DNA of 24,381 nucleotides. Origin: a virus. Lineage: Duplodnaviria; Heunggongvirae; Uroviricota; Caudoviricetes. How positions within the stretch are numbered: the stretch's first letter is position 1; each line of letters starts with the position of its first letter. Positions 1 to 24,381 of the stretch are shown one piece after another. Below the pieces are notes generated by a model that was given only the letters and a program-made list of their open reading frames with translations, did not search any database and was not told the DNA's origin. The position numbers and the translations under genes were made by a program. The DNA is taken from the IMG/VR virus record IMGVR_UViG_2531839666_000027. One strand, given 5' to 3'.

Positions 1-1284
1 TTACAGACTTCTGGAAGGTTGCGCAGCTCTTACAACACGCGGTTGATCTTCCGCAGCGTCTTCCAGCGCACTTAAATCACGGTCTTTCACCTCTGGCATT
101 TTCAGCGCAGAGATTAAACCAATTACTGAATATGCCATGATCATAATGGCGATCGGATACCAGGATTCCGTCATGGTGCAGAAAATACCCGCCAGGATAG
201 GACCAAAACCGGAAGCGATAAGACCACCAATTTCTTTAGAAATAGCCATCCGGGTAAAGCGGTTTTTACAGCCGAACATTTCTGCCATGGTAATGTTTTC
301 CAGAGCAAATAATCCCAGCACCGCACAGTTATGAATCACAATCAGTGCAACCATAATGGTGCTCGGGGCATAGCTTTTATCTACAATGATAGAAAGCATT
401 GGCCATGCCAGCACAATCGCGGAGGTATTCATAATAATATACGGGATCCGGCGACCAATTTTATCGGATAACCAACCAAGGAACGGAATGGTCATAAAGC
501 CGAGAATCGAACTAATCATCAATGCATCTGTTGGAATTGCTTTGTTAAACAATAACGTCTGCACTAAATAGCCTGCAAGGAAAGTCTGAATTAACCCAGA
601 GTTACCCGCCTGACCAAAACGCAGCCCTGTTGCCAGCCAGAAGGATTTGCTCTGGAACATGCTACCAGCAGGTGCAGGTTTTGCTGTGGGTTGGTTGCTG
701 TCATTAACCTTCTCAAAGACCGGGCTTTCTTTCAGATTCATACGTAACCAGATAGCAAAGACCATCACGACAACGCTCGCCAGGAACGGTATACGCCATC
801 CCCACGCCAGCAGTTCCTCTTTACTGAGAATGAAGAACATAAAGGCCCAGATTGCCGTTGCGCTCAAGGTTCCGCAGTTAGTTCCCATAGCTACAAATGA
901 GGAGATAATTCCGCGCTTACCTTTTGGTGCATATTCCGCCAGCATCGTACCGGCACCGGAAATTTCCGCACCTGCACCCAACCCCTGAATAATACGCAGC
1001 GTCACCAGCAAGATGGGGGCAAAAACACCAATCTGTGCATAGGTCGGTAACACACCAATTAAGGTGGTACAGATCCCCATCATGGTGATGGTAATAAAGA
1101 GCACTTTTTTACGCCCTATTCTGTCGCCCATTTTGCCGAAAATAAATGCTCCGACAATACGCGCCACATAACCTGCACCGTAGGTTCCCATTGCCAAAAT
1201 TAACGCCATTGCCGTTGATGATTCAGGAAAAAATATTTCATGAAACACTAACGCTGCGCCGAGCGAATATAACTGGAAATCCAT
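1..1284 (-). CDS. ydfJ: MFS-family transporter (YdfJ-like); begins at the TM2 region with the G-x-x-x-D-R-x-G-R-K-K loop motif about 50 aa in, so TM1 appears missing (5'-truncated at the prophage junction)
   Basis: 427-aa ORF with many hydrophobic helices and the MFS loop motif GKMGDRIGRKK; ATG at 1284..1282; stop TAA at the window edge (3..1). Sequence matches my recollection of E. coli YdfJ. Confidence 0.85.
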   Translation of the reverse strand: MDFQLYSLGAALVFHEIFFPESSTAMALILAMGTYGAGYVARIVGAFIFGKMGDRIGRKKVLFITITMMGICTTLIGVLPTYAQIGVFAPILLVTLRIIQGLGAGAEISGAGTMLAEYAPKGKRGIISSFVAMGTNCGTLSATAIWAFMFFILSKEELLAWGWRIPFLASVVVMVFAIWLRMNLKESPVFEKVNDSNQPTAKPAPAGSMFQSKSFWLATGLRFGQAGNSGLIQTFLAGYLVQTLLFNKAIPTDALMISSILGFMTIPFLGWLSDKIGRRIPYIIMNTSAIVLAWPMLSIIVDKSYAPSTIMVALIVIHNCAVLGLFALENITMAEMFGCKNRFTRMAISKEIGGLIASGFGPILAGIFCTMTESWYPIAIMIMAYSVIGLISALKMPEVKDRDLSALEDAAEDQPRVVRAAQPSRSL

Positions 1285-2069
1285 AATTCACAGGTGTTTT
1301 TTCCCATCCTGTGGTTTCCTTGGCGTTTTCTAGGTTTTTTCAGATAGTTGCATTTTTTAAAAAGCATCCTAAGTTCGATCTCAGTGTCTATCTGGGGCCT
1401 ATTTCTGTCCCATATATGCCCCAAAAAAACTCCCCAACAGATAAGTAGTTTTTTCATGGATTTATGCGTAAAATCAAGAACGGCTGGAAATCATTCAATA
1501 CTCACACTATCGAAAAATTTACCAGCCAACCGCAGCACGTTCTTGCATAAGGCGTGTCTGCGGTTTTTCAACTATTCAGATACATCACTCCCATCACATT
1601 CATTCCTCCGCATCAAAGGCATATAGGCTATATCACCTTGATATTTTTCTTTTTCAGATAAAAACTGTTATCTATGTATACTTTTAAACCCAATCCGTGT
1701 AGAGTCTCTGCATAAGATAGTTTGCAGTTACCGCTTCAGCTTGCGCCATAAACCGCCTGATTTTTGCTGCCACCTGTTAGCATTCCTGTATACCTGAAAC
1801 GACAATGTTTATCTACGAACTTTAAGAACACCCAAGATAAAAATTGTCAACTATATCATATATAACACATTACTAATTCGAGGCTATATGAACAGCATAC
1901 TGATAATCACTTCTCTCCTTATCATATTCAGCATTTTTAGTCATGCCCTAATAAAATTAGGGATTGGCATATCCAATAACCCAGACAAAACCGATGTATA
2001 AGTCAACATATCCTGAATCAGACATACAATATCGCAATGAAAATCAATAATATTTTAAGGAATATCTTC

Positions 2070-2303
2070 ATGAAATCAAAAGACACCCTAAAGTGGTTCC
2101 CTGCGCAGCTTCCTGAAGTAAGAATTATCCTAGGGGATGCTGTAGTGGAAGTAGCAAAACAGGGAAGACCTATCAATACCAGAACATTGCTTGATTACAT
2201 TGAAGGAAACATAAAGAAAAAATCATGGCTGGATAACAAAGAATTATTACAAACAGCGATATCAGTTCTTAAAGACAACCAAAATTTAAATGGTAAAATG
2301 TAA
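2070..2303 (+). CDS. ydfK: small prophage protein YdfK-like (77 aa)
   Basis: ORF-track frame 2037..2303; internal ATG at 2070 is preceded by AAGGA about 8 nt upstream, whereas ATG 2037 has no RBS. Protein MKSKDTLKWFPAQLPEV... recalled as YdfK/YnaE family. Confidence 0.6.
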   Translation: MKSKDTLKWFPAQLPEVRIILGDAVVEVAKQGRPINTRTLLDYIEGNIKKKSWLDNKELLQTAISVLKDNQNLNGKM

Positions 2304-2618
2304 TATAATAAACTTACTTTTTATCATTTTTCCACTTTAACAACATTTTGCTCCACTTTTCCACGATCAAACAACTTGAAATCTGGTTAAAATAACACGC
2401 AACACTATTCTTCTTCCTTGAGTCCGCCCGGAACTCGAAAAACAAACCGAGTTAAAGCCATTTTTCACAAAATCGATTTTGGGTCTCACCAAAATTACGG
2501 GGTTGCATACGCATTCGTTTATTTTCGAACGTGTACATACAAATATGCACAAAAATAATCAAAATTATTTTCTGAGATGCATTATGATATGAACACCAAT
2601 TTCGTATAGAGTCTCACT

Positions 2619-3209
2619 ATGTCTCGAATTTTTGCTTACTGTCGGATATCAACGCTGGATCAGACCATCGAAAATCAACGCCGGGAAATCGAAAGTGCAG
2701 GTTTTAAAATCAAACCTCAGCAAATAATCGAAGAACACATTAGCGGCTCAGCAGCAACCAGTGAGCGTCCTGGTTTTAACCGGTTGCTTGCTCGCCTGAA
2801 ATGTGGTGATCAATTGATTGTGACAAAACTGGATCGCCTTGGTTGTAATGCAATGGATATCAGGAAAACAGTGGAACAACTGACCGAAACAGGTATCAGA
2901 GTGCATTGCTTAGCATTGGGGGGCATTGACCTGACCAGTCCAACAGGAAAAATGATGATGCACGTAATTTCAGCAGTCGCTGAATTTGAACGAGACCTTT
3001 TACTTGAACGCACTCATTCCGGGATAGTAAGAGCCCGCGGCGCAGGGAAACGTTTTGGTCGACCACCTGTGTTAAATGAAGAACAGAAACAGGTGGTATT
3101 CGAACGAATTAAGTCAGGTGTAAGTATAAGTGCCATTGCCCGGGAATTCAAAACCTCGCGGCAAACCATTTTAAGAGCCAAAGCAAAACTTCAGACACCT
3201 GACATATAA
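2619..3209 (+). CDS. pinQ: serine recombinase, DNA invertase Pin family
   Basis: 196-aa ORF; N-terminal catalytic region YCRISTLDQ (serine nucleophile) and C-terminal HTH; matches recollection of PinQ/PinR. Confidence 0.9.
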
Positions 3210-3305
3210 AAATAATCTCGGTGTGAGATGCTTTACGTCTTCCAAGCCCCCTTCCTTGCCGTAAATGGAAAGATACATCTAATTATAGAATTTATATGTT
3301 TTACC

Positions 3306-3881
3306 CTACGGCAGTGCTGGCCATTCAATATCCTGTGCAGTTGACGTATCAACACGGTTCAGCAACACCCGATACTTTTTCCAGGCTTCCAGCAATGAGG
3401 TTTCTTCCTCCGTTGCGATTTCCAGATCTACAGCATCCTGAAGTGGCGCAATATGCTCACTGGCTACCTGCATCAGGCTGTTTTTTGTTTCTTCCGCCTC
3501 TCGGATCCGGAACAGTTTTTCTGCTTCTGCATCTTTCACCCAGGCTGTGCCGTTCCACTTCTGAAACTCCCCTTCCGGCGATAACCAGGTAACATTTTCC
3601 GGTAACGGACCGAGTTCAGAAATAAATAACGCGTCCCCTGACGCTACGTCATAAACCGTTTTACCCCGATGGTCTTCAACGAGATGCCACGATGCCTTAT
3701 CACTGTTGAAAACAGCCACAAAGCCAGCAGGAATATCTGGTGGTGCAATATCGGTACTGTTTGCTGGCAGACCTGTATGAGGCGGAATATATGCGTCACC
3801 TTCACCAATAAATTCATTAGTTCCGGCCAGCAGATTATAAATTTTTATGGTCCGTGGTTGTTCACTCATTCTGAATGCCAT
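3306..3881 (-). CDS. tfaQ: tail fibre assembly protein Tfa
   Basis: 191-aa [27 protein letters not shown]..., near-identical to recalled lambda Tfa; its ATG overlaps the stf stop (ATGA). Confidence 0.9.
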
Positions 3882-6691
3882 TATGCAAGCCTCACAATAT
3901 AGTTAAATGCGATGTTTTTGACGGTGTTTTCCGCGTTACCAGCAGCGTTAACGGTGATGGTGTGTCCATGTGAACCAATCGCAACGGAGTGCGTATGAGC
4001 ACCAATACCGACAGTATGCGCGTGTGCACCTGCAGATGCTGCTGTGCCGGACAGTGAATGGCTATGATTACCATCTGTACTGGTATTCGCTAACCACCCC
4101 GTAAACATACCTACTGAGCCTTGTACACCCCAGGTATTTTGACCTGAGCTTGTATAACCATATTGATAAGTATCTTTAAAAACACTGGGGTTAAATCGAC
4201 GGCCATCTCTATGGCTGTGATTACCAGCTGCATTCGTGCTGCCACTTAAACTATGGGTATGCGCACCAGTGTTATTCGTGGATTTAGTGCCGTAATCAAA
4301 CGACGATGTGGTTTTCGTCCCCAAATCCGTACTGGATGCGCTGGCGCTGTGGGTATGCGATTTAATGCCGTCCTGTTCCTGAGACAATACGGCCCGACCA
4401 CTGGCAGGTTTGCCCTTAATCGTCCAGCCACGCATATCAGGGATCACGCCTGACGGATAAGCGGCTGCAAGTTTCGGGTATGCAGATTTGTCAAAAGTCT
4501 GCCCCTGCATCAGGGCATAGCCAGACGGAACGGTATCTGATGGCCACGGGATTGGTGCGCCAGGCGGATAAAACTGCTCTGATGGCGTATAGAGTGAATA
4601 AACTGTACCGTCCGTTAACCCTTCCGGCTTATTAGCAGAATATGCTGGTGACGTATGAATCGTCACGCTGGCATTACTGGTATAATCCCATTGAATATTT
4701 ACACCAGTCGCATAATTTCCGATTGCAACGTAAATATCGTAAGTATCACCAGATGTATTGACCCAGGCAAAATTTGTAAACCCTGTCGATGTGCGCTGCC
4801 ATAAAGCACCAGTAATCCCCTTCGGATTACCATTACCTGCACGTAAAACAAGTTCAGATATACCTGCCTGTTGAGGTGACCCCACGTTAAATCCAGCGCC
4901 ACCAATCAACGTAATTGAAACAACAGAACTCGCCTGTGGCATGGTTACCGTTGCTAATTTGAACCAACCAGCACCACCGCTGAATGACATTGTTGTTGAG
5001 TTAAGCGTACCAATATCTTTCGGCGTCAGTGTTATATCCGCTGAAAGCGCCTTACCATTCACCTTACGGGCAGAAGGTACCCGACCATTCGCATTGTCAT
5101 TAGCTGCTTTCACTGCTTTCGGTGTCGCAGCAAGCGTTTCAGATGTGCTGTTGGTTGCACTACTGAGCTGGACAATTCCTTTTTGTGCTGTCGTAGCGTC
5201 CTGTGCGGTGTATTTCCCGTTAGCCAGGTCATACGCGGCCTTAACGGCTTTTGGCGTTGCCGCCTGTGACTCGGAAGTGCTGTTAGTCGCACTGCTGAGC
5301 TGAACTATCCCTTTCTGTGCTGTCGTTGCATCCTGTGCGGTGTATTTCCCGTTAGCCAGGTCATACGCGGCCTTAACGGCTTTTGGCGTTGCCGCCTGTG
5401 ACTCGGAAGTGCTGTTGGTCGCACTGCTGAGCTGTACTATCCCCTTTTTCGTCGTGCTCGCATCCTCAAGCGCCACGGCGGATGCAATATCCTCTGCCCG
5501 TTTTGCTGCTGTCTCGGCGCGCGTTGCCGCGGATTCCGCCGTACTTTTGCTCTGTGCTGCCGCTGCCGCACTGCCAGCAGCCTCTGTCGCCTTCGTGGAT
5601 GCCGTCGTGGCGCTGCCCCTCGCTGCTGACGCCTGTCTGGTCGCCTCATCTTTTGAAGCAGACGCAGATGATGCCGATGACGCCGCCGAACTGGCGGACG
5701 ATGCGGCAGCCGTTTTTGAGGATTCTGCGCTGGTTTCCGACGCTTTCGCGTTCGTTTCGGATGTCTTCGCTGCGGAAGCAGACCTCGCTGCTGCGCTGGC
5801 CTGTTCAGTGGCTTCGCCAGCCTTCGTTGTGGCTGTTGAAGCGGATGATGCGGCGCTTTCTGCCGATTTTCCGGCGGCGGTGGCACTGACTGCTGCCTCC
5901 TCTGCCTTAATGGACGCCTCACGGGCCGATGATGCAGCTGCTGTCTCAGAGTCTGCCGCAGCTGAGGCGCTCTGTTCCGCTGCCGTTTCAGAAGACCTGG
6001 CATTCGTCTCGGACGTTTTTGCCGCCTTCACGGAATTTCCTGCCGCCGTTGCCGAGGAGGCTGCACTGCTGGCGCTTGTGGAGGCGTTCGTTTCTGATGA
6101 TTTTGCCGCCTCTTTGGAGGCCGCCGCATCTCTGGCTGAAGTGGCGGCTTCTGACGCTTTCGTCGTCGCAGTGGATGCAGAAGTGGCTGCTGATTTTTGT
6201 GACGCTGCAGCATTCGTTTCTGACGTTTTCGCCGCACCGGCACTGGTGGCCGCCGCGCTTTTTGAGGACTCTGCAGCGGCAGCACTTTTTGATGCTTCAG
6301 TGGCCTTTGTTGATGCCGTTCCTGCGCTGGAAGACGCCTCCTGAGCCGAAGTCGCGGCCTGTCCGGCTGACGTGCTGGCTGCACGCGCTGAGCCTGCAGC
6401 ATCAGTCGCATGGGTTGCCGCCTCACGGGCAGATGTGCCGGCATCACTGGCTGACTTCTTCGCGGCTGCCGTGTTCTGTGCCACCGCGGACGCGTTACGC
6501 GCCACCTCTTCCACCATCAGTTCAAAACGGCGCAGAGCCTCCGGACGGGCATCATCCTCCGTCATGGCACCGAGAAAATCATTCAGCGTACCGGGTCGGG
6601 AATCTTCATACACGGTGATGGTCCCGGCATGTGACGGCGGGAATCCTTCCACCAACAGAATAACGCTGTACTGACCGTACTCAACGTCCAT
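3881..6691 (-). CDS. stfQ: side tail fibre protein Stf, 5'-truncated by the IS (lacks about 50 N-terminal codons relative to lambda Stf); open frame continues to the IS boundary at 6699
   Basis: 936-aa ORF; Ala/Ser/Thr-rich rod, repeated [14 protein letters not shown] modules, C-terminal His-rich domain ...[38 protein letters not shown] as in lambda Stf. The frame upstream of the first ATG stays open (..[11 protein letters not shown]) until the IS end. Confidence 0.85.
5080..5460. repeat. about 2.8 copies of a near-perfect 132-bp tandem direct repeat inside stf (44-aa module [44 protein letters not shown])
   Basis: Directly visible: cctgtgcggtgtatttcccgttagccaggtcatacgcggccttaacggcttttggcgttgccgcctgtgactcggaagtgctgtt recurs at about 5201 and 5333 with 1-2 mismatches, plus a partial copy below 5200. 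Confidence 0.8.
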
Positions 6692-6707
6692 GCTGTAACT
6701 GTAGTGG

Positions 6708-9021
<2,314 letters not shown>

Positions 9022-9034
9022 CCTGAACCAGGAA

Positions 9035-10543
9035 TTATTCTTCGGACTGGTCGTCGGTGTGCTGCGGCTCCTGTCGTTTCGTTGCGGCACTACTGCCTCC
9101 TTTATCACTGGCCGGATCGGTATCAAATACCAGATCCAGATTGCGGTTTTCATCAATTTCGGCCTTGCGCCGACGTTTGACATCATCCGGATTACGACCA
9201 CCAGCACGTACCCAGTCTGATTCTGTCGCCGCTCCACCACGAATCTGGATTTTCCAGGCCTCAGCCTCCTTAACAGGGTCAATCCACGGCATCACTGGTC
9301 CGGAATACACCGCGGTATACAGTGAAGAACGGTCAAGATCGCGGGGTAGCCTGATAACACCGGATGCCACAGCCTGTTTCAGCCATGCACGATACATCGG
9401 GCGGGTGACGGCACCAATAAACCAGTCCTGCAGGATCAGGTAGCCATCAGTGGATTCAACCAGCTCCTGACGCTGGGCGCTGTAAGTGCCGTTATAGTTG
9501 CGCGCTGTACTGGAAAAACTCAGACGACTGCCCGCCGCCACGGCACGCAACTGACCATTACGAAAAGTTTCAAGGTTAGGATTGGGGCGATCCGACTTCA
9601 CCATTCCGATTTCTTCGCCGGGTTTCAGATCGTCGTAAATAATGCCCGGCTGAATGGTAAGCTCACGTTCATTCTCCTTTCTGCCATTACCATCCGGTTC
9701 ATAGCTCTGCCCGTCGCCTTTCCGGATGTACATCCCCAGAGCAGCGGCGATCCTTGCTGCAGTCAGCTCAGAATCTTCATATTCTTTCAGGGCACTGAGG
9801 CGGATCAGCACACCGGACAACAAAGACGTCCCGCGCATCTGGTGCAGACGGCGAACAAATTTAAGATGCAGCATTCGCTCTGCATCCACTTCTTTGGTTT
9901 CCATCTGCCGTCCGGATACGGGACGGCTTTTATACACCAGATATTTTTCGGGACGCCCCCAGTCATCAACAAACACGCCCTGATTCAGCCTGTTGCTCTC
10001 ATCACTGGTCATGGGAATAAAGTCCGGCTCGAGCGCCTCCAGCCAGAAATGAACACCGGCAGAAGGCGCCAGGCTGTTTATGCGCCCGGAAACCATCTGG
10101 GCAAACACCTCACCATCGCGCAGCCAGGTACGAAGCATCAGACGTTCCAGCATCGGACGGGTAAACTGCCCGGTGACTTCCGGGCTGACAGACCATTCAC
10201 TCCATCGGGTGCGAATCTCCGCAGCCAGGTCACGGGCAATGGCCCCATTGCGTAATACCGGATGTGGCTCGACAATAATCCCGTTTTTCCCCACCACCCG
10301 TTCTTCCAGCTTGTCAAATACACCAATAACCAGATCGTGGTTGTTATCAAGGTAACGGGCCTGCTCACGTAACGACACGGCCCCGTACTGGCTTAACTGG
10401 TCGGCAGTTCGGTTCTCCCGTCGGGCTTTGTGTGTCCGCGTCGTTTTTACGGCCTCATAAGCCTGGATCACCGCACGGGAACGCAGCCTTGCCGCTTTCC
10501 ATCCTGGTGAAAAAACGCCAATCACATCATCAAGAATTGCCAT
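9035..10543 (-). CDS. portal protein (lambda gpB family)
   Basis: Long ORF in the portal position between the W-like gene and the protease; likely start MAILDDVIGV... at ATG 10543..10541, overlapping the W stop (ATGA); ORF-track start is 10615. Confidence 0.85.
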   Translation of the reverse strand: MAILDDVIGVFSPGWKAARLRSRAVIQAYEAVKTTRTHKARRENRTADQLSQYGAVSLREQARYLDNNHDLVIGVFDKLEERVVGKNGIIVEPHPVLRNGAIARDLAAEIRTRWSEWSVSPEVTGQFTRPMLERLMLRTWLRDGEVFAQMVSGRINSLAPSAGVHFWLEALEPDFIPMTSDESNRLNQGVFVDDWGRPEKYLVYKSRPVSGRQMETKEVDAERMLHLKFVRRLHQMRGTSLLSGVLIRLSALKEYEDSELTAARIAAALGMYIRKGDGQSYEPDGNGRKENERELTIQPGIIYDDLKPGEEIGMVKSDRPNPNLETFRNGQLRAVAAGSRLSFSSTARNYNGTYSAQRQELVESTDGYLILQDWFIGAVTRPMYRAWLKQAVASGVIRLPRDLDRSSLYTAVYSGPVMPWIDPVKEAEAWKIQIRGGAATESDWVRAGGRNPDDVKRRRKAEIDENRNLDLVFDTDPASDKGGSSAATKRQEPQHTDDQSEE

Positions 10544-10755
10544 CAGAACCTCGCCAGCCGGTACCCGGGATGCCCCCGTCGTCGTGTAATCAGAGCCGCA
10601 AGGCGGCGCTCCCACTCCTGCCGTCCCTGCCGGATCTCAGATAAGTTTTCCATGGTCATCTGCTGACCATTAAAGGTGACGGATTTTCCGTCCAGCACCG
10701 CCATTTCAGCTTCCGTATAACGCTGAATCATGGCTTCGATATCATTCTGGTTCAT
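10543..10755 (-). CDS. head-tail joining / head completion protein (lambda gpW-like)
   Basis: About 70-aa ORF between terminase and portal; C-terminus ...RRRGHPGYRLARF resembles lambda W; ATG 10755 is preceded by GGAGG and overlaps the terminase stop. Confidence 0.7.
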   Translation of the reverse strand: MNQNDIEAMIQRYTEAEMAVLDGKSVTFNGQQMTMENLSEIRQGRQEWERRLAALITRRRGHPGYRLARF

Positions 10756-12725
10756 AACCATCCTCCGGAAGTCAGCCAGGGGTTAACATCGTCAGTTACT
10801 GTTTTCTTCCGTTTTTGTTTTTTAACAGGCGTGGATACCGGTTCCGGTGAGGATGACGGTTCGGTACTGTCCTGGACACACTCCAGCCAGGTCTCCCGGC
10901 TCGCCCACTCCGGTGCATCCGGCCAGCGGATCTTTTCGTATCCATGCAGAATGACCAGAGCCTCGGCATACACCATCAGGTCAAAAGCTTCGTTGGCACC
11001 GCGACCCGGCTTACTCCATTTCCCGTCACTGCTCCGCTCTTCATACGTCAGTTCGTCGTAAAACCAGCTCCCCAGCCAGTCAGGGAAATGCACATAGCCT
11101 GGACCTGGCGAGTCACGCCATAACGCGTTATTCACCCGGTCTTTCAGGGCATCCGTCTGAAGAAGCCAGAGCGGCACATCACCTGCGGCCTGCGCCCGGC
11201 GGCCCGTTCGTCCGGTGTTATCAGGGAATGTACGGCTGATCAGTTTTGCGCGCCGGATGCTGTCACCCTTAAACAGGTAAATACGTTTACCAAGGCCATC
11301 ACGACGGCAACGACGCCAGAATTTATAGGCATTATCAGTGACCCCGTCTTCACCGCCGGAGTCCACCGCCATTGCCATCAGTCGCATTTGTTGAGAAGGA
11401 TCGGAGGCCAGCGGCCAGCTTTTATGAAAAACATCCGTCAGCAGGACATCCCAGTCTTCCGGATAGCTGGCCGGATCAATTCGCTGGCTCTCCCCGTCGC
11501 AGTCACTGCGCAATGACTGCGTGATGTTGTAACGATCAATAATCCAGCGTTCGCCACGACTGCCATAGCCCGTTACCTGAACCACAAAACGGCGATGACG
11601 TCCCGCCTGCACATCCACTGTCGCCACAAGGAAATTAACGCCATCCGGCACACTGCGGGAAGGAACTGGCTCTGCCCGCTGCTCAAGCAGTTCACTTTTT
11701 CGTTGCTCCATGCTGGCACGAGGAAGATAAGGCAATCCCCAGTCGGTGTTGATAACCGCCCTGAGTGTTTCTTCGCTTCCTGTCGCTTCATACTCCTGTT
11801 CTGCAGTCAGTAATTTGTAAACCAGTTGCGCCCAGGTCTGATACGCAGCAGCTGGCCCTTCCATCCAGAAACTGGCGATACGGGAGCGGCGCGGTTCACC
11901 GGAAACGTTGCCGTTACGATCAATGACCTGACCTTCACGCAACCAGACTCCTGCACTATTGAGCTCACGCTTTTTCTCCGCAGTGATAATGCCGCTGCAG
12001 TGCGGGCAAAGTAGATACGCCGCCTCACTGGCTTTAAAGGGATCCGGTTCATTACGGTAGCCGGTCATGGCATCCATGGCTGGCTGAAAATATTCACCGC
12101 AGTGCGGACATGACCAGTACCAGCGGCGGCGGTCACCACGATTGTAAAGGGAAAGAATACCAGTCGTCGGTGGCGCTTCATGAGGCGACTTACGTCGCCA
12201 TTTGCTGTCGCAGATGTCACGTCCCGGCGAGCTCTCCACCAGAGTCATCCCGGCGGACATAAATGTGGTGGTACGTTTTGAGGCCAGGGAGAAACCATCA
12301 CCCTCGCTGTCGATATTCTCCGGAAAACGGTCGTAATCGGTTAAGGCGACAAACCGGTAATCCGACGACGACATAATGTTGACCGAGGGCCAACCAATTT
12401 TAAGGAACGAGCCATCCCTGAACGTCTTATCATGGACATTATTGTCGTTACGACGTGGACTCATTCTTTTCTTTACCGCCGCACTGCTTCTGAACGTTCT
12501 GTCGAGGCGCTTTTTAGAATGCTCGCGGGCCTTATCTTCGGTCATCTGCACAACGAGCATGTCCGAAGGATCGCAAACGATGGTATAGACAATCCATCCA
12601 TCGATCAGACCAATGGTCTTCCCTGTTCGCGCAGGACCAACAAAAATCACCGCATCGTATTCACGCGATGCCAGGCAGTTCATGGGCTCAATGATGTAGG
12701 GTGTCAGTTCAGGATCCCATGGCAC
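10752..12725 (-). CDS. terminase large subunit (lambda gpA family); the intact frame starts at a GTG, while the probable true N-terminus (ATG 12850 with AGGAGG) is in another frame
   Basis: 657-aa ORF with ...WYWSCPHCGEYF... zinc-ribbon-like motif typical of gpA terminases. The upstream 49-codon frame MGFSSARNLGRDISAGFSPPRRMPISEAVKKF... starts at an RBS abutting the small-terminase stop and would join this frame if the A6 run at 12758-12763 were A7. Confidence 0.85.
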   Translation of the reverse strand: MPWDPELTPYIIEPMNCLASREYDAVIFVGPARTGKTIGLIDGWIVYTIVCDPSDMLVVQMTEDKAREHSKKRLDRTFRSSAAVKKRMSPRRNDNNVHDKTFRDGSFLKIGWPSVNIMSSSDYRFVALTDYDRFPENIDSEGDGFSLASKRTTTFMSAGMTLVESSPGRDICDSKWRRKSPHEAPPTTGILSLYNRGDRRRWYWSCPHCGEYFQPAMDAMTGYRNEPDPFKASEAAYLLCPHCSGIITAEKKRELNSAGVWLREGQVIDRNGNVSGEPRRSRIASFWMEGPAAAYQTWAQLVYKLLTAEQEYEATGSEETLRAVINTDWGLPYLPRASMEQRKSELLEQRAEPVPSRSVPDGVNFLVATVDVQAGRHRRFVVQVTGYGSRGERWIIDRYNITQSLRSDCDGESQRIDPASYPEDWDVLLTDVFHKSWPLASDPSQQMRLMAMAVDSGGEDGVTDNAYKFWRRCRRDGLGKRIYLFKGDSIRRAKLISRTFPDNTGRTGRRAQAAGDVPLWLLQTDALKDRVNNALWRDSPGPGYVHFPDWLGSWFYDELTYEERSSDGKWSKPGRGANEAFDLMVYAEALVILHGYEKIRWPDAPEWASRETWLECVQDSTEPSSSPEPVSTPVKKQKRKKTVTDDVNPWLTSGGWL

Positions 12726-12858
12726 CGAGTTACCAGCCCCTTGGGAACACGCATGAATTTTTTAACAGCCTCCGAAATCGGCATGCGACGTGGTGGGGAA
12801 AATCCTGCCGATATGTCCCTTCCCAAATTTCGGGCTGATGAAAAACCCATTATTCCTC

Positions 12859-13386
12859 CTAGAGACTCTCTCCTTCCTCATCAGGAATTAATTCAGCAGC
12901 ACAAGCCTCGTAGGATTTTTCCTGAAGAGTGTATCGCAGGTCATCAATGGCCTGCTGTACAACGCCGACGGCCTGAGGAGTCAGGGCGCAATCGCGTTCA
13001 AGAACATCCGGAATTGTCTCCAGAACCTGGACGACAGCCTTTCTCATGGACGAATAGACGATGACTACTTCATCAACGGGGATGAGTTTTCGCTGCTCCT
13101 TTTCCAGCTTGATCCTTTCATTTTCAGATTGGTACCAGTCCTTTCTCTCTTTCGGCTCCATACGGGATGGATCATGAACAGAGTCTGCTGCCTCATGCTT
13201 CACACTAAACAGGGCTGGCCCGACATGCTGCAGGGCGTAAACGGGGTTCCCCCTGATAGTCGCAGCCACAGGAGTGTTGGCCGCGAGGAGCCGTTTTTTT
13301 ACTGTGTCCCGGTGAAGCCCAAAGGCCTCAGCGATTTTAAAAACACTCCAGTAATAAGCATCACCGATCCCGCTCACATTTGACAT
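12859..13386 (-). CDS. terminase small subunit (Nu1-like, HTH DNA-binding)
   Basis: ORF 12859..13416; preferred start ATG 13386 (MSNVSGIGDAYYWSV...) has GGAG 8 nt upstream; sits immediately upstream of the large terminase and downstream of the cos-like site. Confidence 0.75.
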   Translation of the reverse strand: MSNVSGIGDAYYWSVFKIAEAFGLHRDTVKKRLLAANTPVAATIRGNPVYALQHVGPALFSVKHEAADSVHDPSRMEPKERKDWYQSENERIKLEKEQRKLIPVDEVVIVYSSMRKAVVQVLETIPDVLERDCALTPQAVGVVQQAIDDLRYTLQEKSYEACAAELIPDEEGESL

Positions 13387-13564
13387 AAGCAACTCCATCT
13401 GGCAGGTGAAAATCATGTTTATTTATATATTTCAATTAATTGCAAACTGGTCTAATGACAGGGAGAAAAAAATATTGTACAGGTGAAAAGAGAAATAACT
13501 TTTAATTATCAATAAATTACCAAACATGCTGCCGCCGCCATGGAAATGCAAAAACTAGCCTTTT

Positions 13565-13590
13565 TCCGCGACGCTCCCGCCCCGTGGCAG
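13565..13590 (-). other. putative cos site (cosN-like cohesive-end region)
   Basis: Minus strand reads ACGGGGCGGGAGCGTCGCGG, closely resembling recalled lambda cosN ACGGGGCGGCGACCTCGCGG, about 190 bp upstream of the small terminase start as in lambda. Confidence 0.45.
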
Positions 13591-13610
13591 GGGCCCCCAC
13601 CGGGAGGACC

Positions 13611-13633
13611 CGACAGCCTGACAGCCTGACAGC
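13611..13633. repeat. short tandem repeat (GACAGCCT)x2.9 beside the cos-like site
   Basis: Directly visible: gacagcctgacagcctgacagcc. Confidence 0.6.
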
Positions 13634-13770
13634 CGTGATGAGCATCTGATACAGCGCTTTACATAATGGCATAGGAATAATTCAGAAGGACATCACAGCA
13701 TGCCCACACAAATTAGTGTGAGTGTCCTGTTTCTTCCTACGCACAGGACTGACGAGCATGAGGGGAAAAT

Positions 13771-13938
13771 ATGCGAACCATAAATGCCTCATCTTCAGCA
13801 ATGCAACCGGCATCCGAACAGGACGATATTGTAAATTCACCTAATTACGAGGACATTGCAGTAGTTGAATTGCAGCTCTGTATTAGCCTGACAGTGACAG
13901 AATGCGATATTGACTCTGTCACAGGTGAAATAGTTTGA
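13771..13938 (+). CDS. hypothetical small acidic protein (55 aa), absent from the ORF track because it is under 60 aa
   Basis: ATG 13771 preceded by GAGGGGAAAAT (good RBS spacing); reads MRTINASSSAMQPASEQDDIVNSPNYEDIAVVELQLCISLTVTECDIDSVTGEIV to TGA 13936-13938. No homology recognised. Confidence 0.25.
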   Translation: MRTINASSSAMQPASEQDDIVNSPNYEDIAVVELQLCISLTVTECDIDSVTGEIV

Positions 13939-13958
13939 ATGATTAGCAGTTATGGTGC

Positions 13959-14165
13959 TCAGTCAACCACCAGGGAATAATCCTTCGAATTCTTATCGTG
14001 CTTCACCAACGCTGCCTCAATTGCCCTGAATGCTTCCAGAGACACCTGATGTTCTATACATGCAATTACAACATCCGGGTAACTCATAGAAATGGTGCTA
14101 TTAAGCATATTTTTTACACGAATCAGATCCAACGAGAGTTCATCAGCAGATTGTTCTTTATTCAT
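13959..14165 (-). CDS. ynfO: small prophage protein, YnfO-like
   Basis: 68-aa [23 protein letters not shown]...; ATG 14165 with GGAG 8 nt upstream; position matches the Qin-type order. Confidence 0.6.
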
Positions 14166-15666: not shown

Positions 15667-15871
15667 TCATTTTCACTTTTTTAAATCCAACGACAGACGG
15701 CTGGCATTTAAGTATTGTGAAATATTATCAAATGTAATCATCATTGATTTACAAAAGATACATTTTGCCCCGAAAGGATTCATGTCAGAAACATCAAAAG
15801 ATGATGTTCTATACTGGGAACCATGACAACACGGGCATCTAAAGTGAATATGGTTTGTAATATTGTCTACC

Positions 15872-16084
15872 TCAAAGCGCCACTACATGAACAGCGGCAG
15901 GACCTTTAGGTCCGTTCTCAATACCAAATTCAACTTCCTGATTCTCAGTTAATGTTTTGAAATCGTTGCTCTGAATTGCTGAGAAATGGACAAACACATC
16001 TTTGCTGCCATCTTTCGGCGTGATGAAACCAAAACCTTTTTCAGGGTTAAACCATTTCACTAAACCAGTCATTTTGTTAGACAT
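15872..16084 (-). CDS. cspI: cold-shock protein (CspA family)
   Basis: 70-aa [41 protein letters not shown]... with RNP1/RNP2 motifs. Confidence 0.9.
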
Positions 16085-16446
16085 AATTATTACCTTTTGA
16101 AGAAATTAGCCCTTGGGCAGAATGGTCCGAAAAAAAATATCAGAGAGAAAAACCAACAAGGAAATCTCAAGAGGTACAAATAATAAAATTATAACAATGA
16201 CTGCTTCAGATAAATTTGTAACAAACCAGAACACCATTAACGCATGATTAACCACCCATAGCAAGGATTACTTTTGTAAAGAAAAACACAGCAATGAAAG
16301 AATAGCTTTATTTATTAATAAAACGTGTCATTCTGATTAAGACCTTTTATCTTACCCTTAAGATTTCAGGAATTTTGGCTCATGGAAGAGTCCTTTTTAT
16401 TTAAATTTTACATTCCGCGATGTAAATGTTCCGATTTAATATTACC

Positions 16447-18470: not shown

Positions 18471-18754
18471 TTTGAGATTGTGGTGCTTTTTGTGGGAGTC
18501 ATCCACTTACGCACTTTGTTTTGCGATGCCAGCAGTTAGCTTCTGCTGTGAAACTATTCATGCAGCAAACCTGCACTTCACCACAATGGTTAGCATACTT
18601 TTCCTGATTAAGATTTTGCCAAATATGCTAGCCATTGTTTCATGTATTGGACCTCCTTACTTTTTATTAAAGAGATCCAATATTCACTACTCTGTCCGTA
18701 TCTCTACTCAGGCATCAGCCTTCTTCGTTATCGTATACAGACGAGCGATGAATT

Positions 18755-18970
18755 TTAATCAGTAATGATGACATTTGCTGCTGCAGGACCTTTAGCACCA
18801 CTCTCTATAGAGAAGGTAACCTTTTGACCTTCAAATAAGGTTCGATAATTATCATTCTGAATCGCAGAAAAATGCACAAACACATCTTTACTACCATCAA
18901 CAGGAGAAATAAAGCCGAAACCTTTATCAGCGTTAAACCATTTTACTAAACCAGTCATTTTATTTGACAT
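18755..18970 (-). CDS. cspB: cold-shock protein (CspA family)
   Basis: 71-aa [41 protein letters not shown]... Confidence 0.9.
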
Positions 18971-19280
18971 TCTACATTCCTTAACTTGAGCCTTTCGGCA
19001 TAAATGGTTTGCATAACAGAAACGACTTCGTACTTAATTGGAGAGACTCAAAGAAGGAATAAGTGAATAACACCTGAAATGAGAACTGCTTTAGTAAACT
19101 ACTTCGTATATCGTCTGTTCTTCAAACCGACGCAGTCATTAACTCATAGTTGAACATATGAAGCAATGTTTATTTTAGACATCCAGCCACCTTCAATCCT
19201 ATCAAAAAAGTAGTTTTCTCCAGGAACGTGTGTATGGTGCACCAGGTTATCAGTATTAAGGAGTTTTTCTGTCCCCTAAA

Positions 19281-19480
19281 ATGACAGGAATTGTCAAAAA
19301 CTTTGACTACAAAAGCAGCAAAGGTCTTATATTCCCATCCGATGGCGTATCGATGCCCAGCTTCACGTTTCAGCTCTCAATCTTCGAGATGCAGAAGAAA
19401 TTACCACAGGATTACGCGTGGAATTTTGCTGGATAAATGGTTCGCGTGGACCTTCAACTGCCAATGTTTATCCCGGGATG
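19281..19480 (+). pseudogene. cspF: cspF-like cold-shock paralog relic: frameshift after codon 23 and loss of the normal stop
   Basis: ATG 19281 gives [22 protein letters not shown] then goes out of frame; the continuation ...[42 protein letters not shown] is in another frame and reads on into ORF 19418..19747. Confidence 0.5.
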
Positions 19481-19515
19481 AGATTCAATATCTCTATTGC
19501 CCCATTTAAAGCACA

Positions 19516-19549
19516 AAAACCCGCTTATAAGCGGGTTTTCTACTTTTTT
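19516..19549. terminator. bidirectional intrinsic terminator between convergent cspF-like and Q; candidate tR' of the late operon
   Basis: aaaaacccgcttataagcgggttttctactttttt: 8-bp GC-rich stem with T-tracts on both strands. Confidence 0.6.
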
Positions 19550-19585
19550 CTAAACGTCGGATACACAAAGCCCATCGTTGAGAAA

Positions 19586-19613
19586 ATCTTATCCATGTTT
19601 TTGAAAAATGCAA
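19586..19613 (-). promoter_or_regulatory. candidate Q-dependent late promoter (PR'-like): TTGCAT-16 nt-TAAGAT on the minus strand
   Basis: Hexamers read from the minus strand just downstream of Q and upstream of the terminator; placement follows lambdoid Q-PR'-qut-tR' architecture. Weak by sequence alone. Confidence 0.25.
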
Positions 19614-19644
19614 ACATCATGTCGCCATCTTCAGCAAAAATCAT

Positions 19645-20394
19645 TTATCTCGTCACCTTCCTCAATTGCGCTTCCGCGTATGCTTCTTCCTGCCAGCACT
19701 TTGTTACCAGTTTACCAATGACGTCCGCATACCCCTTATACCACTGATAATCGGTCAGGTCTGGTACCAGCTTCTGGACATGACGTCGTGCCAGCGTGGT
19801 CGGTAAACGACTAAACCGGTTTCCATTACAACGCCCACAAATCTTATATACCGGTACGCCATGAAACCGGTTCTTTTTCATCCAGAACAATCCCTTTACC
19901 CTTACACCCTCTGCACGCTGTGCTGACTTCGCCCTTACCATGGCAATGCTGACATAGTTCCTTCACCCATTCTTCCTTGATTACAGATTCCCCGCGTCTG
20001 TAGTGTTTCACCACTTCGCGCAATACATTATAAAATCCCGTACCTGAACAATGCTCACAGCGAGCCTTACTTGCCGCAGACCTGGAGTAATCAGCAAAGG
20101 CAAAATTCACGAGGTAAGGAATAATCTGTAACCGGATTTCTTCACTCAATTTGTTCAATGTCGGGTTATCCAGTGCCATCGCGTAATTTAGCAGGCCTTC
20201 AATCGCAAACTGAGCGTCCTGAACACCAACTTTTGCCAGAAATAAGGCCAACCCAAGTGGTGCTTTCGACTGCACCATCCCCTGCGCTGCCATTACATCC
20301 GTAATTGTTAAACAACCGGTGCCTGTCGCTGGAGCGTCATCGCTCAATTTTGGAGATTTTGGGGAGTAATATTTTGGTAAGGCTTCAAGGTTCA
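19645..20394 (-). pseudogene. quuQ: late antiterminator Q, split by a frameshift at an A5 run (19874-19878)
   Basis: Starts MNLEALPKYYSPKSPKL... at ATG 20394; frame 1 ends ...CRGCKGKGIVLDEKEPVSWRTGI*, frame 2 continues ...NRFHGVPVYKICGRCNGNRFSR...QLRKVTR*. An A4 run would give one continuous Q protein of about 250 aa with Cys-rich zinc-binding motifs. Confidence 0.65.
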
Positions 20395-22270: not shown

Positions 22271-22426
22271 TTACTCCTCAGGTTCGTAAGCTGTGAAGAC
22301 AGCGACCTCCGTCTGGCCGGTTCGGATTCGTACCTCGCAGAGGTCTTTCCTCGTTACCAGTGCCGTCACTATGACGGTTAAACAGATGACGATCAGGGCG
22401 ATTAACATCGCCTTTTGCTGCTTCAT
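22271..22426 (-). CDS. hokD: Hok-family membrane toxin (type I toxin), 51 aa
   Basis: MKQQKAMLIALIVICLTVIVTALVTRKDLCEVRIRTGQTEVAVFTAYEPEE: single TM plus conserved Hok C-terminus; ATG 22426..22424; ORF-track frame extends upstream to 22483. Confidence 0.85.
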   Translation of the reverse strand: MKQQKAMLIALIVICLTVIVTALVTRKDLCEVRIRTGQTEVAVFTAYEPEE

Positions 22427-23100
22427 AGCCTGCTTCTCCTTGCCTTTCGGCACGTAAGAGGCTAACCTACATATGTCTAGCATGAAATTGGCCTCAGATT
22501 AATGTTAAGCGTCTTGCAGGACGCGTAATGTTAACTGGGGCTTTTCTCTATCTGCCGTTGGTGTTCATGCCCGAGGCAGATAGCCTCAAGCACCCGCAGC
22601 CATTCTACTTAACTACCGTTACCTCGCCAATGTGAAATCAGTCAGAAAGGCGATCCATAAGAACAATAGCAAGACAATAAATCGCCATTACAGCCGTAAT
22701 AGCCAGCGCACATTTGAGAACCAGCACCACAACCTCCTGTATTGGACGTAGACCAGTCCTGATGAATATGAGGCTGTCTCGTCAGTGATTCAATACAACT
22801 ATTGGGTATAGTTTCTCTGATTTTTTCTGTGGAAATGGGGCACAACCACTAGTCACCACCAGCACTTCTTTTAATACGCAAAGTCCGACACAAGCTAACC
22901 TTCTAGTCCGCTTTGAGCGAAAAACAGCCATAATTTAGTGCCACGTATATAATGATAGAGCTATTCAAGCTAGCAATTCACATGTAAAAATTCAGAGGGT
23001 AGAAGCACATAGTTATAAATGTTGGCTCCATCGACAAATTGCGGTCTCAAGTACATTTATTAATGTTGCCCCCGCATTAACAAATCATCAAGGTGACGAC

Positions 23101-24381
23101 ATGGACGATATTAATATCAGCCTCGACGAACTTAACACTATTGATTTATCCCCCTTAATCCAGAGTAAGCTGCCAGTTACCTGCTTTGATATCACAAAGT
23201 ATCTTTCTAGCCTAGGTGATGGAAGAGCGGAGATAAGACTGCTAACCCATATTTGCGGTTTTCACTTTCGTCCCGAAAATCCACAGGTACCATTTGGTCC
23301 GTGCTTTCAAAGCAGCCAAGGTAGATCTGCAATTCCGGATGACATTAACGGGTTGTCGCTGGAGGTACTTTCTCAATTTTGCCCGACGATAGAGCTACCC
23401 GAACTTCAAGCTCGTATTGCTGATACACTTTGGGTTCGTAAAATTGGTGGAATCCGTTTTCCTTTGCTGGCAGTCCGTGCTTATTATGCGTCCAGTATAG
23501 CTATTATGACATCGCAAGGGACGTGGGTTAGTGCTTTAGAACGCCTAGAGCGTGCGCTTAGGCTGTGTTGTTTTTTTCGAAAGCATACTGATTTCAGGGA
23601 TGAATTTGATCAGCTTTCGGCACATCTACTAGCAGAGTATGAACGTACCAGAGAACAAGGCGATTCACCTTATCCGCTGCGACTCCTGCAACTCGATATC
23701 GACTGTAAAGTGAGTGAGCCATCTTTTATTGCCCAGGAACTCCTGTTTCTGACAAAAAACTATCTGGCTCAAAAATTATTTTCATTTGCCGTCGATGCCT
23801 GTAAAACCGCAATCCCGATTGCGAATAGGTGCTGTGACAGAGATACACAGTTTGAATTCTGGCGGCTTCTTGCCGATACACATCTGGAAGAGTCAAAATT
23901 CCAAGATGGCGGTATGATTTCGGCAGCCTGCATGCAGAATGCTATTGAAGCACTGGCTAATATTCCAGGAACCCGAATAGAACGTCTTGCGCTGTATGAA
24001 GAAATGCGTGATTACCAAATCGAATCCCGTCACCAGATGTCTATCCTTCAGTCTCCCCCTCAAGATATTAGTGAGATTGTCCATCAAGCCAAGAGTCGGG
24101 TAGTCGGAAGAGATTTGTTTGATATGGTTTTCAGACTTGCGATGCTGGTCTGTCGGCCAACCAGCATTGAGAGACTTAAGGCTCAAGCAATAGAACAAAA
24201 GGCCAACAGCATAGCTTGGATGTTTGGATCAACACATATTGATCATGAGGGAATGACACTTGCTCGCATACCCGCAGGATTGGGGATTGATGATGCAAAT
24301 GGGGCAGTTATTTGGCCCATAATGATGACGAGAATGCGTATTGAACCGCCCCGGTTTTCCGGGAGAGTGTTTTATCTGTGA
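23101..24381 (+). CDS. hypothetical protein, 426 aa, function unknown; opposite strand to the prophage late genes
   Basis: Complete ORF ATG 23101 to TGA 24379-24381, preceded by an AT-rich promoter-like region; no Walker A, HNH, DDE or other motif recognised by eye. Confidence 0.7.
   Translation: MDDINISLDELNTIDLSPLIQSKLPVTCFDITKYLSSLGDGRAEIRLLTHICGFHFRPENPQVPFGPCFQSSQGRSAIPDDINGLSLEVLSQFCPTIELPELQARIADTLWVRKIGGIRFPLLAVRAYYASSIAIMTSQGTWVSALERLERALRLCCFFRKHTDFRDEFDQLSAHLLAEYERTREQGDSPYPLRLLQLDIDCKVSEPSFIAQELLFLTKNYLAQKLFSFAVDACKTAIPIANRCCDRDTQFEFWRLLADTHLEESKFQDGGMISAACMQNAIEALANIPGTRIERLALYEEMRDYQIESRHQMSILQSPPQDISEIVHQAKSRVVGRDLFDMVFRLAMLVCRPTSIERLKAQAIEQKANSIAWMFGSTHIDHEGMTLARIPAGLGIDDANGAVIWPIMMTRMRIEPPRFSGRVFYL

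Follow-up and report, generated by a model that had tools for sequence, protein, structure and literature searches.

The cspF-like gene that lies beside cspB in a Qin-type prophage is read in two frames, and the question that it raises is whether the break records a real inactivation, an error of sequencing, or a gene that is still used in some unusual way. The window, by which we mean the whole stretch of DNA that was analyzed, comprises 24,381 nt of a Caudoviricetes record (IMG/VR IMGVR_UViG_2531839666_000027). The earlier note on this DNA described a pseudogene of a cspF-like paralog next to intact cspB and cspI genes, and we found the pseudogene and its intact neighbors to be as described: sequence identical to that of the remnant is labeled as a pseudogene by PGAP.

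The window derives from a Qin-type cryptic lambdoid prophage of E. coli, the lysis/Q module of which occupies 15–23 kb. The order of genes in this module (cspI, rzpQ, rrrQ, ydfR, essD, ynfU, cspB, cspF, ydfT [the Q antiterminator], ydfU, rem, and hokD) agrees with the locus annotations of ATCC 25922, CFIAFB20190167, and K-12 MG1655. The remnant lies where cspF (b1558) lies in K-12, inside the Qin lysis/Q module, divergent from cspB and upstream of ydfT/ydfU, with ydfT convergent to it. It is therefore the ortholog of cspF and not the additional paralog that the earlier note had supposed. The neighboring cspB gene (18755–18970, minus strand) and the cspI gene (15872–16084, minus strand), which is 3 kb from cspF, are both intact and encode proteins identical to CspB and CspI of K-12. 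Each coincides with a cspA-type thermoregulator (Rfam RF01766), which at cspB comprises the mRNA leader and coding region (18739–19131, minus strand; 158.8 bits) and at cspI spans 15845–16230. Unlike cspB and cspI, the cspF remnant is not matched by the Rfam model of the cspA thermoregulator. A scan of 18700–19800 returned no sigma-70-like site upstream of cspF on the plus strand at the threshold of the tool, a result that is uninformative in either direction.

Several features of the wider prophage were also recorded. Compared with the Qin prophage of K-12, that of the window retains extra phage genes, which encode terminase, portal, and tail fibre proteins (1–14000 and 22400–24381). Another of the extra genes, a prohead protease/capsid fusion, is truncated beside an IS3 element, and the insertion site of the prophage is a truncated ydfJ gene. 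Downstream of hokD/sok (Rfam sok at 22421–22595) the window carries a DUF7380 gene, in a place that relE-relB occupies in K-12.

The pseudogene that PGAP annotates in ATCC 25922 (DR76_RS17085) corresponds to 19269–19471 of the window (plus strand), which holds 68 of the 70 cspF codons in two frames. From an ATG at 19281, the first frame encodes 22 CspF residues, continues with out-of-frame residues, and ends at a premature TAA at 19434–19436 (plus strand), giving a product of 51 amino acids. The second frame encodes, from 19346, the remaining 42 residues of the cold-shock domain up to ...ANVY. The earlier note had placed the start and the rest of the domain in different frames, and the CspF profile of NCBIfam (NF012007) bears this out: the two halves match positions 5–27 and 27–68 of 70, and the matches abut exactly at one frameshift. 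Instead of a single uninterrupted ORF of ~70 codons for the whole domain, there is a domain that is split at 19345/19346.

The conceptually repaired translation, and only that sequence, scored 131.1 bits on NF012007 (cutoff 111) and 60.7 bits on the Pfam cold-shock domain (CSD; PF00313; cutoff 27), and it scored 103 bits on the CspH model, which is below the cutoff of 141. In the repaired protein, 59 of 68 residues are identical to K-12 CspF. Pfam detected the CSD in the repaired translation as well as in the second half alone; the 51-amino-acid product of the first frame matched no Pfam family, the CSD included. On the basis of profile score and synteny, we assign the remnant to the CspF family by descent. 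As judged from its sequence, it lacks the features of a working member of that family: a single ORF, a C terminus followed by a stop codon, and a canonical start.

Three lesions were mapped by aligning the remnant with the intact E. coli alleles of K-12, N1286, and ST38 and with the E. albertii gene. The first concerns the start codon. The homologous start lies at 19269, 12 nt upstream of the ATG at 19281, which corresponds to codon 5; the earlier note missed it. At this position (19269–19271, plus strand), 5–6 nt after an AAGGAG Shine-Dalgarno sequence, the window has CTG in place of the TTG that is present in K-12, ST38, E. albertii, E. fergusonii, and cspH. Because CTG is also found in the N1286 allele, which PGAP annotates as intact, the CTG start alone is not decisive. 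The second lesion is the frameshift, the loss of one T between codons 26 and 27 (19345–19346, plus strand; GATGG^CGT), by which GATGGTCGT has become GATGGCGT. No homopolymer is present at the site of the missing T.

The third lesion is a deletion of 258 bp, with the junction TTTA|TCCC at 19470/19471 (plus strand), which corresponds to 1642058–1642315 of K-12. It removed codons 69 and 70 of cspF, the stop codon, and the whole of the small gene ynfS. Every intact allele that we examined ends in LS followed by the stop codon, and the remnant has lost this ...NVYLS terminus. Since K-12, N1286, ST38, and E. albertii all have ynfS after cspF, and since the intact alleles share the LS ending, it is the deletion that is derived. 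Nothing points to a simple mechanism mediated by repeats: CATGAG occurs near both ends in K-12, and the junction keeps neither copy.

With the stop codon gone, the second frame has no normal end and stops only at 19745–19747, 91 codons after ...ANVY. The earlier note had reported the lost stop and a run-on of about 90 codons; the loss stands, and the length is peculiar to the window, where a T6 run at 19597 (plus strand) is one T short and thereby sets the apparent read-through of 91 codons. In the error-free loci L001 and L003, the corresponding frame extends 111 codons beyond ANVY. The same deletion accounts for a small ORF just downstream of ydfT (19540–19644, minus strand), which we rejected as a candidate gene: it reaches 34 amino acids only through the deletion at 19597, and it is 18 amino acids long in error-free genomes. 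An intrinsic terminator, a G+C-rich hairpin between an A-run and a T-run at 19516–19539, serves the convergent cspF and ydfT genes. It lies ~45 nt beyond the last cspF codon, survives the 258-bp deletion, and is conserved in K-12. Given this position, the long read-through ORF would lie beyond the end of the mRNA.

We examined the distribution of the allele by searching 5,426 complete E. coli genomes with positions 19269–19520, a query that spans both the frameshift and the deletion junction. Full-length matches with at least 95% identity were found in 217 of the genomes, so that the dead allele is present in ~4% of complete E. coli genomes, and all 51 of the full-length matches that we sampled span exactly 252 bp. 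When the missing T was restored to the query, 214 of the genomes matched, the best with 74 of 75 positions over a 74-bp span; none of the 5,426 matched at 100%, and the frame-restored allele was thus not found among them. The locus as such is present in roughly 1,740 complete genomes. The carriers of the dead allele come from unrelated backgrounds that include ATCC 25922, an O78:H4 APEC strain, STEC, and environmental and animal isolates. PGAP applies the label "frameshifted; incomplete; missing C-terminus" in all four of the carriers that we inspected for it (ATCC 25922, CFIAFB20190167, strain 100416, and STEC1589). In the literature we found no specific description of a cspF pseudogene, only general papers on the phylogeny and function of Csp proteins. 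The cspF pseudogene is real, and it is already known in the sense that RefSeq annotates it on identical sequence.

One database entry appears to contradict this picture. A search with the repaired protein returned a 70-amino-acid "CspF" (P0001) with 100% identity, from CP123276.1 (GCA_029855305.1). Its DNA (locus L009, CP123276.1 1638755–1644967) combines every window-type SNP with every indel state of K-12, namely the upstream CT dinucleotide, the T at the frameshift site, and the lengths of two homopolymers, and it carries the complete 258-bp segment, identical to that of K-12. Over 6.1 kb the locus is collinear with MG1655 and differs from K-12 by 399 SNPs and a single 1-bp gap, whereas a comparison of K-12 with ATCC 25922 gave 100 SNPs and 6 gap events. 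The CP123276.1 genome is 4,641,690 bp long and that of MG1655 4,641,652 bp. SNPs that are called while indels are ignored, on an MG1655 backbone, are the signature of a reference-guided consensus, and we discounted P0001 as an intact allele; CP123276.1 looks like an assembly of that kind, with a spurious intact CspF.

The earlier note took the divergence of the remnant from the neighboring csp genes as a sign of relaxed selection. That argument is invalid. CspF and CspH form the most distant group of Csp proteins, with distances of more than 1.2 to all other E. coli Csps (PMC6719143), and they have only three or four aromatic residues and no known function (PMC6719143; see also PMC11648934). 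Because CspF and CspH are divergent by nature, distance from cspB or cspI says nothing about relaxed selection. We therefore turn to the cspF genes themselves, which were compared by the method of Nei and Gojobori over codons 2–68 of the repaired gene. The window and K-12 differ with dN = 0.080 and dS = 0.226 (dN/dS = 0.35). Among pairs in which both genes are intact, K-12 and E. albertii gave dN = 0.090 and dS = 0.213 (dN/dS = 0.42), and K-12 and ST38 gave dN = 0.007 and dS = 0.083 (dN/dS = 0.08). A dS of ~0.23 relative to K-12 marks an old, diverged prophage allele. As the ratio of 0.35 does not exceed the 0.42 of an intact pair, most of the divergence probably predates inactivation, or else it reflects a weak constraint that is typical of cspF. 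Divergence from K-12 begins abruptly, ~175 nt upstream of the cspB start, and the 175 nt on the cspB side of this point are identical; this boundary indicates that the locus is a mosaic.

The individual substitutions were also compared. The remnant differs from K-12 at nine residues, and five of these differences recur in intact alleles: P3 and N11 in the N1286 type, Y14 and S17 in E. albertii, and A30 in a cluster of 463 sequences. Only the pseudogene clade has the changes at position 22, S59, and T64, and W55, although shared with E. albertii, arose inside the dead clade. In a three-taxon split with E. fergusonii as the outgroup, which is our own arithmetic on the dN/dS counts, the window lineage has ~10 nonsynonymous and 5.5 synonymous changes, versus ~1.5 and 4 in the K-12 lineage. 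Between the window and strain 100416 we counted four nonsynonymous changes and one synonymous change (dN/dS ~1.25, a value that neutral drift would give, from only five changes); of the nine differences over 701 bp, six or seven lie within the 203-bp remnant. These patterns weakly suggest that constraint was lost after inactivation, in numbers that are too small to decide the matter. Relaxed selection, as a claim apart from the argument first made for it, is thus left with real but statistically weak signs in its favor, and a dN/dS relative to K-12 that is like that of intact pairs does not help it.

The protein annotated as "CspF" in E. fergusonii (L012 and L013) has a setting of its own. The gene is divergent from a csp gene and lies between a gene of the transaldolase family and an amidohydrolase gene, which is a non-prophage context, and its dS relative to E. 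coli cspF is at least 1. At such a distance, it may be nearer to a chromosomal copy of the cspH type than to a genuine cspF ortholog.

We regard it as nearly certain that the remnant is a diverged cspF allele of a Qin-type prophage that has been inactivated and is decaying. The alternative that the frameshift is an error of sequencing or assembly, and that cspF is really intact, draws its force from the quality of the window as a whole. Set beside NZ_CM143724.1, the closest complete genome (99.9% identity), the window has 30 differing columns. They represent ~17 deletion events, almost all in homopolymers of 5–8 bases (such as T6, A6, A8, T7, and C5), and not one insertion. The sites of deletion include 2317, 3207, 7036, 7065, 7609, 12736, 15578, 15591, 17443, 18414, 19597, 19870, 20450, and 20757, and the deletions that are found only in the window break rrrQ, ydfT, ydfU, ynfN, and the genes for the terminase large subunit and the IS3 transposase. 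These homopolymer breaks are absent from ATCC 25922 and CFIAFB20190167, in which the genes are intact, and the deletions are probably the result of homopolymer under-calling in a long-read assembly; other apparent pseudogenes in the window are accordingly to be distrusted. The cspF lesions do not share this character. No window-specific deletion falls inside cspF, positions 19000–19596 are base-identical to ATCC 25922, and the lost T is outside any homopolymer. The disabling lesions recur in independent, high-quality assemblies: the 1-bp and 258-bp deletions are both present in 214–217 complete genomes, and several assemblies of ATCC 25922, made independently in several laboratories, give the same frameshifted sequence. 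An intact ORF on resequencing was the result that the earlier note had named as fatal to the pseudogene; the ATCC 25922 assemblies amount to that experiment, and they all share the frameshift. An error at this site is therefore highly improbable. The IS3-family transposase gene (minus strand, ~6700–7870) offers a separate example of a shortened run. Its programmed −1 frameshift motif, A AAA AAG, is one A shorter at 7609 (TTAAAAAAGG in L003 versus TTAAAAAGG in the window), which is most likely another homopolymer error, and the same element has deletions of 7 bp and 3 bp in G/C runs at 7036 and 7065.

Two further alternatives accept the lesions and propose that the locus still has a product or a role. 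Expression of cspF could continue by a programmed −1 ribosomal frameshift at GAT GGC GTA, and the sequence predicts that a −1 slip at GGC|C, with re-reading of the C, would restore the CspF reading ...PSDG-RIDAQ... exactly. The site has no slippery heptamer of the form X XXY YYZ, however, and the gene starts with CTG. As the terminator is reached before any stop codon, synthesis of the frameshift product would run to the end of an mRNA that lacks one. Most of the substitutions within the clade change an amino acid when read in the CspF frame, and PGAP treats the gene as a pseudogene. Of all the readings considered here, this is the one to which we give the least credence, and that credence is close to nil. 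A remnant that has taken on a new role, as a peptide of 51–55 amino acids or as an RNA or spacer (for example, one that holds the cspB promoter region and the shared terminator), would be consistent with the retention of the Shine-Dalgarno sequence, the upstream region, and the bidirectional terminator, and with the persistence of the allele in many unrelated strains. The lack of any Pfam family for the 51-amino-acid product argues against this, as does the finding that carriers differ from one another more in the remnant than in its flanks, the opposite of what constraint would produce; persistence in a cryptic prophage that does not excise requires no function. We consider such a role very unlikely. 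A related idea starts from the presence of a doubly disabled allele in unrelated E. coli backgrounds: loss of CspF, of YnfS, or of both might be advantageous and the allele might have moved by recombination, or the transcript of the remnant might be regulatory beside the thermosensor leader of cspB. These are speculations to which we attach only slightly more probability than to a new role for the remnant.

If the remnant is an inactivated and decaying allele, then no CspF protein would be made from it. Its product would be at most a peptide of 51–55 amino acids, of which ~22–26 residues, about the first third of the cold-shock domain, would be native. The allele would have drifted neutrally since its inactivation, and its spread and persistence across unrelated strains would be due to descent and to recombination of the prophage region.

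The biological weight of this finding is small, as CspF has no known function, the prophage is cryptic, and the pseudogene is already in RefSeq. The locus is of more use as an example of method. It contains a real frameshift amid homopolymer errors, and independent assemblies tell the two apart. It also illustrates how a single database protein can falsely rescue a pseudogene, as the lone intact version here is an apparent consensus artefact.

Four known genes are the closest points of comparison. K-12 cspF shares with the window the divergent arrangement with cspB and the convergent one with ydfT, the Shine-Dalgarno sequence, the downstream terminator, and a protein identical at the 59 of 68 positions given above; the window differs from it in having a CTG start, the 1-bp and 258-bp deletions, with ynfS gone from between cspF and ydfT, and nine residue changes. 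The N1286-type cspF (WP_024172454.1; locus L004, NZ_CP178401.1), which occurs in ~38 complete genomes and is annotated as intact by PGAP with a CTG start, resembles the window in its upstream region, CTG start, P3, and N11, but from about codon 14 it is like K-12, and its frame, stop codon, and ynfS are intact; this mosaic allele is probably a recombinant. The chromosomal paralog cspH (b0989) belongs with the remnant to the divergent, aromatic-poor CspF/CspH clade of cold-shock domains (PMC6719143), but its dS relative to the window is ~0.8, and the window stays below the CspH cutoff. The closest of all is DR76_RS17085 of ATCC 25922, in which every base of the remnant is the same; the window differs from it only outside the gene, by homopolymer deletions.
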